This document shows positions 51,901-54,900 of a stretch of DNA of 64,000 bases, piece after piece. This DNA comes from a virus. Taxonomy: Duplodnaviria > Heunggongvirae > Uroviricota > Caudoviricetes. Made by a program: the position numbers. The stretch lies in the IMG/VR virus record IMGVR_UViG_2684623127_000007. One strand, written 5' to 3'. Each line of letters starts with the position of its first letter. Within the stretch, counting starts at the first letter, position 1.

Positions 51901-54900
51901 AAAAACAAAAACCCGCCGAAGCGGGTTAAGTGCGGGTGCGTTGAGGATGCCTGACACATCAGAGGTGGCGAGGGATTTCTCCCCCGCCTGGTCTCTTACT
52001 CCTCAGGTTCGTAAGCTGTGAAGACAGCGACCTCCGTCTGGCCGGTTCGGATTCGTACCTCGCAGAGGTCTTTCCTCGTTACCAGTGCCGTCACTATGAC
52101 GATTAAACAGATGACGATCAGGGCGATTAACATCGCCTTTTGCTGCTTCATAGCCTGCTTCTCCTTGACCTTTCGGTCCGTAAGAGGCAATCTATATGTG
52201 ACGAGCATATAGGGGCCTCACTTCGATTTATAGTCGGGTGGGGCTTTTATCTATCTGCCGTTGGTGTTCATGCCCGAGGCAGATAGCCTCAAGCACCCGC
52301 AGCAATCCTACTTAACTCTGCCGTTACAGCAAACCGTTTTCGCCCGATATGGGAATTCCCATATCGGAATGAATTCAGTTCACCTGGCGAGGCTTAGCGT
52401 ACAATTTTTTCCGTTTTGTGAGCTGCCCCTACATGCCGCTGGCGCGGCATCCGGAAAAAGAATCCACGTCCTGAAGGACGAGGATGTCAAGTGCCTTTCC
52501 TGGTCCAGCCATATTTTTTGAATGCAGGCGCCGCTTCATCGGTTTGTAGCCATTCTGCAAATCGACGGGTTTCATCATTTGCATCCTGACGTACTGTAAT
52601 GTTCATATCACGCCATATCACGTAGTCTGGCGCTATTTCCACGACATCACCAATTTCTGGATTACTGGCTGCCCAGTCAGCCCAGGTTATCCAGACATCT
52701 GCTCCAGGCTGATTCTCAAGAGCCTTACGTGCAGTTCCGCTATTGGGCGCATATAAAATAATATTTTTTCGGATTGCGGCGACAGTTTCTATATTCCCTT
52801 TACGTCCGGCAATATCTTCCCAGACGCCAGTGCCTGATGTATTACTGGTACCACCACCATCATTAACAATTACGCCAATCCCAGGTCTGGTCAGGTCGTC
52901 AATACTCCGGATATTTTTAGGATTACCTTTCTTTACCAGTAAAATACTTTTTCGCAGATAAAGAGGCTGAATATCTTTTTCACTGAAGCTGTCTTTATGG
53001 TCCCGAATGATAGCCAGAGCAGATTGTTCTGATGCGCCAAACAAGATATCTGCATTTTTTTTGGCATCTTCATTCCATTTGTTCTGTGGGCCGTAATGAA
53101 CGTTCACTATAATACCTGTTTTTTCGGCATAAAGTTTGGCTGCATCAAGCAAGGCTGTATGCGGGCCACCAGGACCATACAGATTGATATCAGCATAAGC
53201 AGCAGAAGACAGGAATATTAAAAAACCTGCCATTATGTTCCTCATAAAAAACTCCTTTTATTGGTTATCATGAAATAAAGTTATAAACACTACAAATAAT
53301 ATATATTACATCCAGATAAACTTATCCGACTTTACCTCGTGCATAGCTTGTTATTTAAAGTCAACAAAATAAGGAAAATTATACGCATATTGAAGAGTAT
53401 AAACCTTACATGTTGATTACATTTTTGTAATCAACATCCTGTTTGGAATAGCCAGCCTTTAATGGATAACTATTTCTGACAATGCAATGAGTATAATCAA
53501 GTCCATCTTCCACTGAGAATTAGAGGCGGCATGCTTTTTCCGGCTCTTGCCGGATATCCGTAATTGTCCATAATCTGCAGATTTATACCTTCTGCATGAC
53601 CTGTCAGCGAAAATTTGTCCGGTGTTTCTACGGGAATGACATCAAAAGTTACACGCACTCGCGTTACCGTGTAGACCTACTTTCCTGCACTTGCAAGATC
53701 ACAGTGGTGTAACCGTAACAGGAATTTATTCTCTGGACCGGCAGTAAATCCCTGAGTGGCGTGGTTCCCATATCAATTTCCCGCCAGGCAGCCTCCATTG
53801 CCAGCGTACAGGCTGGAGCCATGACCTGCCCTTTAAATCTGGCCCGACCATCCCACCGGACGTGTTCTTCTCCCCTGAACTTAGGTACAGTCATCTCCAG
53901 TGGCACAAAAGTGTCAGCGCCATAATTTTTGACCGTTATCGCGCTACGGATATTTTGTTGACTGGTGAAAATCACCCCGCAGAATCAGGCTTATTCCCTT
54001 AACCTGGGCTTTCATCCTGACCGCCGCCTCACTACGACCAATCAGACTGCCGATGCATTTTACCTTCATTGTTAGTATCATGATTTCAGGCCTGCACCAT
54101 CCGCTCATTGCCCGGACTTCCGACAAATCCCGGCAACCATATCCCGGTGCTTGTTCAGCTCCCGCAGCGCGGCGCAGACTCGCTCCCACTTCTGGACATG
54201 ATTCTTCGCCCTACGCAGTTCGCGATTTGCCATATGCAGCGATGGCAAAATCAAATCATCTTCTCGCGTTGCAGTAAACGATGGCAGCGACTGCACAATG
54301 TCCGCCACAGTTTCTGTTTTAATATCTTCCTGTGTTGCATCTTTCTGTACCGGTAACGCAACACCGGCTGGCTGAGGAAAGGCTTTACCATCGGTTTCCG
54401 CTACCGATTCAACTTTCGGCTCTGCTGGTAAATTATCACCTGGTATGCAGTAACGAATTTTACCGTTCTGGTTTACGCGAATCAGACGACCTTTGCTGAT
54501 TGCCATTGCCAGCGTTGAAGCAACTTTGCGGGATGTTGTACCGAACAGCGTAGCCAGTTCATCCGCCGTTTGTGGTCCGCGTTGTTCAATCGTCGCGGTT
54601 AAATCGCACTCTGAGATTTTCGCTTCTGTTGCCGTGGTGGTTTCTTCTGGCGCTGGCTGTTCCTGCTGAACGTTGTTATCAGCCACACGCCAGGTGTATA
54701 CGCTTTTATCAACGAAGCCAGCCTTTTTCAGTTCCCACAGCTCGTTCAGTACTTCTTCACGACTGATATCAAGTCGCGCAGCCAGCTATACCGACGTGGC
54801 TTTTCCCATCGCTTTCAGTGCGTCAAAAACAGTCTCCATAAATTTCCTCCCGGTAAAAAATCACTTCTCAACTCAAACAAAACCAGCCGCTTTCCGGCGT

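Follow-up and report, generated by a model that had tools for sequence, protein, structure and literature searches.

The locus studied here raises two questions, namely which gene is carried as cargo next to hok in this prophage and what function the inverted repeat in front of it may have. We analyzed a 64,000-nucleotide stretch of the Caudoviricetes record IMGVR_UViG_2684623127_000007, hereafter called the window. A preliminary description of this DNA had placed the gene product in the AcfC/PEB3 family and had taken the repeat for a candidate operator of a dimeric regulator. The reading that we consider very probable is that the gene is paa/adfO, encoding an exported binding protein and carried as prophage cargo, with a promoter cassette upstream that would be bound by a transcription factor (Table 1).

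Table 1. Features of the paa locus (positions in the window)
Feature	Position	Strand	Remarks
Portable paa module	52425..53450 (approximate)	-	86-89% nucleotide identity to plasmid paralogs
Terminator-like hairpin CGTCCTTCAGGACG, then T-rich tail	52467..52480	-	Just past the paa stop codon; kept in plasmid copies
paa/adfO coding sequence	52487..53245	-	252 aa; AcfC/PEB3 family, SBP_bac_11 fold, exported; predicted Sec signal peptide
RBS AAGGAG	53251..53256	-	5 nt before the ATG at 53245; kept in all plasmid paralogs
Candidate -10 TATAAT	53378..53383	-	20 nt after GTAAGG; no recognizable -35; predicted, not mapped
Invariant GTAAGG	53404..53409	-	With the T before it, a further TGTAA half-site (the third), 11 nt past the second
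Perfect inverted repeat ATGTTGATTACA-TTTT-TGTAATCAACAT	53410..53437	.	Conserved core ATTACA-N4-TGTAAT at 53415-53432
Degenerate internal part of a papH-like gene for a minor fimbrial subunit	53447..53911	-	85% identity to intact 195-aa genes

The cargo gene is paa/adfO of E. coli O157:H7

The flagged gene is paa (also adfO, Z2053, O-island 57) of an E. coli O157:H7 prophage. The window region showed 100% DNA identity to the RefSeq loci annotated as "paa: AcfC family adhesin Paa" (WP_001449026.1) in O157:H7 and O55:H7, and the product name of the same gene in phage records is "Paa/adherence factor AdfO". The published O157:H7 paa locus has the same gene, the same neighbors (hokD/ckf) and the same ompW-integrated prophage as the window. 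The gene has been named and long studied, and by itself adds nothing new.

The earlier family assignment was borne out by significant, near full-length matches in database and HMM searches. A phmmer search of PDB aligned the open reading frame with PEB3 (E = 1.2e-81, query residues 11-248) and AcfC (E = 3.5e-81, query residues 16-248), and the Pfam profile SBP_bac_11 (PF13531; cut-off, 25 bits) matched Paa with E = 5.5e-34 and 118.3 bits, residues 20-247 covering positions 1-226 of the 227 in the profile. We also aligned 19 diverse family members ranging from Enterobacterales to Campylobacter, in which Paa, included via the cluster representative P0001, was 52-56% identical to members from Aeromonas, Vibrio, Francisella, Helicobacter, and Campylobacter. 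Invariant in 19/19 sequences were GPGGPH, S134-N-T-S-G-T-G140, W142-E-D, P167-N-S-G, and D183/W185/T187/W188.

The product was correctly described as a protein of 252 aa with a signal peptide. Its N-terminus, MRNIMAGFLIFLSSAAYA followed by DINLYGPGG, has a predicted cleavage site after AYA18, and the mature PEB3 crystal chain (2hxw) aligns with Paa from D19 in the phmmer alignment. Read from the sequence alone, the signal peptide consists of MRN, the hydrophobic stretch IMAGFLIFLSS, and AYA followed by D; it contains no Cys, and a lipoprotein is thus not predicted.

Exported binding protein or surface adhesin

paa/adfO is an established adherence-associated factor of EHEC, EPEC, and ETEC and serves as a PCR marker when STEC are profiled for risk. 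How it is distributed among EHEC lineages has been published (PMC4366395). A mutant in adfO (z2053 on OI-57) shows poor adherence to HeLa cells and lower secretion of several proteins (PMC8565820), and less adherence and fewer A/E lesions are reported for paa mutants (PMC11420993, citing Batisson 2003). The virulence or fitness cargo gene suggested in the preliminary description agrees with the adherence defect published for the adfO mutant (PMC8565820), but the named gene paa/adfO had been missed.

Vibrio cholerae AcfC (PDB 4JB7) is a full-length homolog of Paa and has the signal peptide, the SBP fold, and the SNTSGT loop in common with it, at a published identity of 47% (PMC5976639). AcfC is periplasmic, influences chemotaxis toward mucin, and binds sulfated glycans (PMC5976639). 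Its gene is located 3' of acfB, which is under the ToxR-ToxT cascade, in a polycistronic operon of the Vibrio pathogenicity island (PMC5976639), whereas paa in the window stands alone behind a cassette of its own. Campylobacter jejuni PEB3 (PDB 2HXW, 3FJ7, 3FJG, and 3FIR) is likewise a full-length homolog, alike in fold and pocket motifs. In PEB3, a D/E-X-N-X-S/T sequon (DFNVS) carries an N-glycan; in Paa, the aligned position reads DSFSEK and holds no sequon. Citrate and 3-phosphoglycerate have been reported as ligands of PEB3. Paa is most likely an exported binding protein, and its strictly conserved SNTSGTG loop and pocket residues would accommodate an anionic ligand of small size.

The contribution of such a protein to adherence could be direct or indirect. 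Paa would act directly if it were a genuine adhesin on the cell surface and bound host cells itself, as its name in RefSeq and in the literature implies, and the reduced adherence and the fewer A/E lesions of adfO and paa mutants (PMC8565820; PMC11420993) speak for this. Its fold and invariant pocket, however, are typical of periplasmic solute-binding proteins, and periplasmic AcfC, unlike Paa with its reported adherence effect, had no role in adhesion to cell lines (Caco-2 or HT-29MTX) and affected chemotaxis instead (PMC5976639). Further, an indirect effect is suggested because the adfO mutant also secretes less of other proteins (PMC8565820). While we take the surface adhesin seriously, we consider it rather doubtful; the alternative is a periplasmic ligand-binding or sensing protein that would influence adherence indirectly.

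The paa gene is carried as a discrete module

The prophage of E. coli O157:H7 that carries paa is lambdoid, with its integrase at ompW. The gene is flanked by hokD/sok (sok, Rfam match at 52149-52298) on one side and by DUF1627 and P/O-like replication genes on the other, and its position between hok and the replication region had thus been recognized correctly. In a Rac-like relative, different genes follow ydaW. A copy of IS1203/IS629 lies just past hokD in the window and is absent there in some other O157 strains. The whole locus was present in 576 of 5426 complete E. coli genomes. The GC content of the cargo segment is 32-42% vs. roughly 50-55% in the phage flanks; together with the lambdoid prophage at ompW and the presence of the module on unrelated plasmids, this supports the earlier view of a prophage moron. 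Regarding the RBS and terminator that had been attributed to the gene, an AAGGAG motif and a hairpin of terminator-like form are present. The putative promoter is deduced from the TATAAT of the upstream cassette, and a simple consensus scan of the paa strand from the repeat to the ATG detected no sigma-70 promoter.

Compared with the intact genes, which are fimbrial genes in pap-like chaperone-usher operons, the papH-like fragment upstream has lost ~70 nt from its 5' end and 38 nt from its 3' end, and it carries frameshifts and a 10-nt deletion. True papH homology ends at ~53447, and the "fimbrial protein" pseudogene annotated by NCBI reaches the paa promoter region by ORF extension only. We rejected the idea that the fimbrial gene naturally ends or terminates at the palindrome: the intact papH-like genes diverge at ~53447 and end with LDYE and a stop codon in unrelated sequence. 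The paa module is a discrete, travelling unit of ~1 kb, and its 5' edge is formed by the palindrome-bearing cassette. We propose that paa arrived as a segment of ~1.5 kb, made up of the roughly 1.03-kb module and the attached dead papH-like fragment.

The inverted repeat lies in a conserved putative promoter cassette

The perfect 12-bp inverted repeat of the preliminary description is real, with two arms (53410-53421 and 53426-53437) of 12 nt each that are 100% complementary, but its spacer is TTTT and not TTTTT, and it spans 53410-53437 and not about 53411-53439. Perfect 12-bp symmetry is found in the EHEC version only; plasmid copies of the repeat have arms of 6-10 bp.

The repeat belongs to a cassette of ~70 nt with the layout ATTACA-AAAA-TGTAAT, then TGTAAGG one helical turn on and a -10 hexamer 20 nt further, with no -35. 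The 6-bp arms ATTACA/TGTAAT and the AAAA spacer are found in all paa cassettes, and with one mismatch in the cassettes that precede a plasmid operon encoding DUF305 and YncE-like proteins. GTAAGG is invariant in 8/8 E. coli cassette versions, the DUF305 cassettes included. The TATAAT hexamer is invariant in the paa cassettes and reads TAAAAT at identical spacing in the DUF305 cassettes, so the GTAAGG-20 nt-TAnAAT spacing is fixed across cassettes. Upstream of plasmid paralogs with differing flanks, the repeat is the best-conserved stretch. A site in Providencia alcalifaciens contains TTACAAAAATGTAAT and a second TGTAAT 11 nt later, with 41.5 nt to TATACT vs. 40.5 nt in the window.

This comparison lends support to an operator for a dimeric regulator, which is plausible in an amended form, as conservation of the arms is confined to their inner 6 bp and the block that is kept lacks symmetry. 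We propose that the inverted repeat would be the core of a promoter cassette at the 5' edge of the module and that a dimeric or oligomeric transcription factor likely binds it, which would make paa expression conditional. Both the -10 and the transcription start are predictions, and the bound factor may act as activator or repressor. A search of the accessible literature for a transcription start, a footprint, or a regulator of paa found none. The cassette is absent in the close chromosomal homologs of E. albertii, Salmonella, Yersinia, Citrobacter, and Edwardsiella. Because such homologs lack the cassette and those of E. albertii, Salmonella, and Yersinia match only the proximal ~130 nt of the upstream sequence, a second, proximal promoter may be the main one for paa.

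No cognate regulator gene adjoined the cassette copies in any context examined. Control by the prophage repressor was rejected, since operator-like repeats of another kind occupy the immunity region (57100-57180) and a scan of the window found no second copy of the motif. Among known E. coli regulators, CRP, FNR, Fur, Zur, TyrR, ArgR, PhoB, EvgA/NarL-type proteins, and IHF, as well as a FliA promoter, were discarded because none of their motifs fits in both sequence and spacing. Fur control of paa is additionally excluded by published qRT-PCR (PMC4382993).

Alternative explanations for the inverted repeat

A palindrome in AT-rich intergenic DNA might arise by chance, and indeed the upstream region has a GC content of 28% and the window contains three further perfect inverted repeats of at least 12 nt with spacers of up to 10 nt. 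In first-order Markov simulations of perfect 12-nt inverted repeats with the same spacer limit, however, the expected number was only 0.05 in 64 kb, and 0.0014 in 251 nt at the local composition, and the core of the repeat is conserved across diverged copies, so that we give a chance origin almost no credence. The repeat could also function as RNA instead of as a DNA binding site, in a hairpin that terminates or insulates against transcription from upstream or that serves as a 5' stabilizing stem. Such a hairpin would be in keeping with the location at the 5' edge of the module and with the predicted folds (minus strand centroid, -13.8 kcal/mol around the 12-bp stem, z = -2.35 vs. shuffles; plus strand, z = -3.5 vs. 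shuffles), but a U-tract after the stem is absent on both strands, and the paa mRNA would not include the stem, which is located upstream of the predicted -10. Only 3-10 inner pairs are left in the Providencia site, in two DUF305 cassettes, and in six other versions of the paa cassette, and the changes in the outer arms are one-sided. As these outer bases vary without compensatory change, a protein-binding promoter element is favored over a hairpin. The invariant block is moreover asymmetric and runs on into GTAAGG beyond the stem. A search of the paa leader and repeat against Rfam gave only weak sub-threshold matches apart from sok, with no match at the repeat. Overall, we judge the RNA hairpin to be very unlikely.

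Homology is lost within ~13-25 nt upstream of the repeat in at least four contexts (the EHEC papH-like fragment and the pZ1323/p1RM10740, pSx181/pUMNF18, and pSTEC299 types), which would suit a recombination scar or hotspot at the module junction with no regulatory role. This explanation is nevertheless unlikely: the 3' end of the module has no partner repeat, its 3' boundary differs between prophage and plasmids, and no recombinase or transposase is consistently adjoining. In addition, the cassette is duplicated before a second operon with exact spacing to the -10-like hexamer. Since this spacing was kept while the spacer sequence diverged, we infer selection on promoter geometry.

Plasmid copies and their implications for paa regulation

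Plasmid paa-like genes (for example those of pUMNF18_87 and pSTEC299_1; porcine, bovine, and other E. coli, and E. albertii) share the same ~1-kb module including terminator, RBS, and cassette. These modules reside on IncF plasmids, often in tandem with the DUF305/YncE-like operon, whereas paa in the window resides on a prophage. The same cassette block with its 20-nt spacing also precedes the DUF305 and YncE-like operon next to paa (pSTEC299_1, pE105-3, and an O170:H18 plasmid). A BLAST search with a 55-nt cassette query matched 607 of 5426 E. coli genomes, with sampled matches in paa-type loci, where the annotation overlapping the match is the "fimbrial protein" pseudogene that precedes paa; one match, on the O170:H18 plasmid, led to the DUF305 unit. 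When viral and metagenome contigs were scanned with the pattern, nearly all matches proved to be paa modules. ATTACAAAAATGTAAT also occurs in a few AT-rich contigs of phage or marine origin, but these had been picked out by that very pattern.

What may be new about this locus is one detail only, namely that the palindrome is part of a small, conserved putative promoter segment that also occurs before the neighboring plasmid operon. Tentatively, and with somewhat less than even confidence, we suggest from these sequence comparisons that the cassette could be an undescribed portable, factor-dependent promoter that would co-regulate two neighboring units encoding exported proteins, DUF305 with the YncE-like beta-propeller and Paa, on IncF virulence plasmids, and that reached the EHEC prophage together with paa. 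Transcription of paa rises in bovine rumen and rectum contents (PMC8524897). If the cassette is a regulated promoter, it would offer a concrete route to paa regulation in the gut. If the tentative suggestion is true as well, the cassette would define a small, horizontally mobile regulon under a host or plasmid regulator. The induction of paa at particular gut sites could then be explained in this way.

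Identity of the cargo gene

The gene is the well-known paa/adfO locus of O-island 57. Its 1.5-kb region is 100% identical to O157:H7 and O55:H7 chromosomal loci labeled 'paa: AcfC family adhesin Paa' in RefSeq (WP_001449026.1), and records of PPompW (ompW-integrated) prophages name the product 'porcine attaching-effacing associated protein Paa/adherence factor AdfO'. A phmmer search against all PDB chains matched Paa over nearly its full length to PEB3 (E = 1.2e-81) and AcfC (4JB7; E = 3.5e-81), and Pfam placed it in SBP_bac_11 (5.5e-34); NCBIfam matches to sulfate, thiosulfate and molybdate binding proteins were weak, every one below cut-off. 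Read from the sequence, the N terminus, MRNIMAGFLIFLSSAAYA followed by DINLYGPGG, is arranged like a Sec signal peptide and has no lipobox cysteine, and the alignment of mature PEB3 crystal chains begins at D19.

An O-island review places adfO (z2053) on OI-57 and describes it as similar to Paa and invariably accompanied by ckf (z2054), a putative phage-associated cell-killing factor (PMC8565820); the neighbor of paa here encodes HokD, a toxin of the Hok family. adfO serves routinely as a PCR marker in STEC hazard profiling and shows a strong association with eae-positive and HUS-associated serogroups (PMC4366395), and its transcription is induced in bovine rumen and rectal contents (PMC8524897). 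The preliminary description, which had proposed an AcfC/PEB3-type signal-peptide protein of 252 aa with its own RBS and terminator, was thus essentially right: similarity to the family is found and transcription is published, so neither of the grounds it named for abandoning the proposal (no such similarity; no expression) applies.

Prophage context

The window has 100% matches in O157:H7 strains, NE122 among them. There, a lambdoid prophage is annotated with integrase and excisionase genes adjoining ompW, early genes of dicB/dicA/dicC type, O/P-like replication genes, and then, in order, DUF1627 (ydaW-like), a small hypothetical gene, a 'fimbrial protein' pseudogene, paa, hokD, IS1203, DUF968, rusA and late genes, which include a PerC-family transcriptional regulator (window ~40060-40380; L134:11065-11379). 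Across paa and the sequence upstream of it, GC content drops to 32-42%, from roughly 50-55% on either side; the entire locus is carried by 576 of 5426 complete E. coli genomes, and a Rac-like relative has other genes downstream of ydaW. Reading paa as cargo in a variable prophage slot is therefore sound.

The IS3-family IS1203/IS629 copy (orfA/orfB, programmed frameshift) lies just past hokD (window ~50463-51676); strain PV15-279 has no IS at that position and carries IS1203 copies at other sites of the same prophage. A perfect 24-bp palindrome, CCGATATGGGAATTCCCATATCGG (window 52344-52367), is found between the paa terminator region and sok/hok. Since the stretch 52239-52385 is 91-96% identical to hok/sok-type loci of thousands of E. 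coli genomes, this palindrome belongs to the hok/sok unit, not to paa.

Features of the paa region (window coordinates)
Feature	Position	Strand	Remark
paa ORF	52487..53245	-	252 aa; sole long ORF of the region
RBS AAGGAG	5 nt ahead of paa ATG	-	read from sequence
Terminator-like hairpin	52480..52467	-	GC-rich, T-rich tail; directly after paa stop codon
Inverted repeat arms	53410-53421 and 53426-53437	dyad	12 nt each, perfectly complementary; 4-nt spacer
Candidate -10, TATAAT	53383..53378	-	invariant in paa cassettes; exactly 20 nt past GTAAGG
'Fimbrial protein' pseudogene	53406-53939 (RefSeq); true homology 53447-53911		annotation versus alignment
sok RNA	52149-52298		Rfam

A conserved cassette upstream of paa

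The inverted repeat upstream of paa is real and its arms are perfect, as originally described, but its spacer is not five T and its coordinates had been off by 1-2 nt. In first-order Markov simulations, repeats of this kind (spacer ≤10) arise 0.05 times per 64 kb and, with the local composition of 28% GC, 0.0014 times per 251 nt. Allowing up to 3 mismatches, no second match to its 22-nt core was found in the 64-kb window.

We aligned the upstream regions of seven versions and tabulated 28 distinct variants from all fetched loci. An invariant block was recovered, consisting of AT(T/G)ACAAAAATGTAATC, 4-5 variable bases and GTAAGGT. Pairing of the arms is complete only in the EHEC palindrome (12/12), with 10, 10, 8, 7 and 6 of 12 positions paired in plasmid paa cassettes, 8/12 in DUF305 cassettes and 6/12 at the Providencia site; the outer arm bases vary on one side only. 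The DUF305 cassette is a second copy of the block on pSTEC299_1, pE105-3 and one O170:H18 plasmid, where it stands in front of another operon, immediately upstream of the paa unit, that encodes a DUF305 protein with a signal peptide and a YncE-like beta-propeller; its 20-nt spacer is unrelated in sequence, equal in length and ends in TAAAAT. Providencia alcalifaciens has a 67%-identical homologue adjoining an integrase gene, preceded by TTACAAAAATGTAAT and another TGTAAT 11 nt on, with the rest of the upstream sequence unrelated; the dyad center lies 41.5 nt before the hexamer (TATACT) there and 40.5 nt before it (TATAAT) in the window.

Tandem units of cassette-DUF305-YncE-like and cassette-paa-like were seen on IncF plasmids (L168:9065-11909, L169:9050-11892, L147:2504-4539). 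The O170:H18 plasmid has lost its second cassette together with the 5' part of paa, and 12 other plasmids carry DUF305-YncE at ~87% identity without the cassette.

paa as a mobile module

Plasmid paralogues of paa, from pig, cattle, marmot, fish and human E. coli, Shigella and E. albertii, share 86-89% nucleotide identity with window positions 52440 to ~53449. Homology extends ~60 nt beyond the stop codon and, in at least four distinct upstream contexts, is lost within 13-25 nt of the palindrome. These limits on both sides indicate that paa moves as a ~1.03-kb module with the palindrome at its 5' edge. In one copy of the prophage, on IMG/VR contig 2698536348_000010 (L120:7559-7668), the TATAAT of the paa cassette is directly preceded by an inserted IS629-type end (TGAACCGCCCCGGG...), which would part the palindrome from paa.

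Intact homologues of the 'fimbrial protein' pseudogene are 195-aa Fimbrial-domain proteins encoded at the papH position of pap-like chaperone-usher operons, both chromosomal and plasmid-borne. They align (~85%) only to an internal piece from which ~70 nt are missing on the 5' side and 38 nt on the 3' side, and which contains a 10-nt deletion and frameshifts. The intact genes terminate in ...GDYYAALRFKLDYE*, while the window runs on into TATTCCAAACAGG and then the palindrome. With homology ending at 53447 and a different 3' sequence beyond, the NCBI end at 53406 is an ORF-extension artefact, and the palindrome is not fimbrial sequence, being crossed by the annotation through ORF extension alone. 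In E. coli strain 98234 (L135:5963-12480), the chromosomal pap-like operon adjoins the phosphoglycerate transport regulators pgtA/pgtB/pgtC, with an IS21 remnant between. PEB3 is reported to bind 3-phosphoglycerate, which makes the adjacency curious, although it is probably coincidental.

A candidate protein-bound promoter element

Conserved half-sites, conserved -10 spacing and divergent spacers are the pattern expected of a protein-bound promoter element, for which the palindrome core is a candidate, rather than of an RNA stem. An RNA hairpin has moderate folding support (z = -2.35), but it lacks a U-tract and covariation, with no compensatory arm change in any tabulated version. Alternatively, the palindrome could be a recombination scar, which would account for the clustered breakpoints but leaves the duplicated cassette with its preserved spacing unexplained. 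With a predicted transcription start ~7 nt past the -10 (~53371), the dyad center would lie at about -52.5 and the third TGTAA at about -37. No -35 element is recognizable upstream of TATAAT, which suggests that the putative promoter needs a bound factor. At 53362, ~10 nt past the predicted start, a C/T polymorphism (TTGACT or TTAACT on the paa strand) divides the retrieved paa loci of EHEC type ~25:25.

No regulator gene adjoins the cassette or paa in any fetched context, and no E. coli regulator consensus is known to fit the cassette in sequence and spacing together. The prophage repressor was rejected, as prophage immunity operators differ, and so was Fur, to which paa does not respond (PMC4382993). 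In E. albertii, Salmonella and Yersinia, the upstream sequence that chromosomal homologues have in common with paa is limited to the proximal ~130 nt; these homologues lack the cassette, as do those of Citrobacter and Edwardsiella. A proximal promoter may thus exist, with the cassette an added distal one. A simple sigma-70 scan of the paa strand from the repeat to the ATG found no promoter. In Salmonella enterica (L142/L143:1-2455), an 80%-identical, cassette-less paa-like gene has a divergent 188-aa GerE/LuxR-type HTH gene ~550 nt upstream and a second GerE-domain gene beyond. Four AT-rich IMG/VR phage contigs unrelated to paa (L097, L107, L114, L129) contain ATTACAAAAATGTAAT followed by TGTAA, the motif required by the pattern that found them; two sites on one contig lie close to strong promoter-like sequences, and one contig has an iteron-like TGTAAT run.

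At the level of a hypothesis, the ~70-nt conserved putative promoter cassette around the palindrome core, common to paa and the plasmid DUF305/YncE-like operon, is a modest new observation.

Predicted function of Paa

The motifs GPGGPH, SNTSGTG-WED, PNSG and D-W-TW-DW are invariant in 19 family members from Enterobacterales, Aeromonas, Vibrio, Francisella, Helicobacter and Campylobacter. They are the loops that form the pocket of this binding-protein fold, which would mean that selection has kept a shared small ligand across the family. AcfC, a periplasmic protein, binds sulfated glycans and mucin by ELISA and alters chemotaxis toward mucin, with no adhesion role in the cell lines tested (PMC5976639). 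According to the O-island review, adherence is reduced in Paa and AdfO mutants; loss of adfO leads to poor adherence to HeLa cells and lowers the secretion of several proteins (PMC8565820). We consider it somewhat more likely that Paa is an exported protein that binds a ligand and may influence adherence indirectly than that it is a dedicated adhesin.
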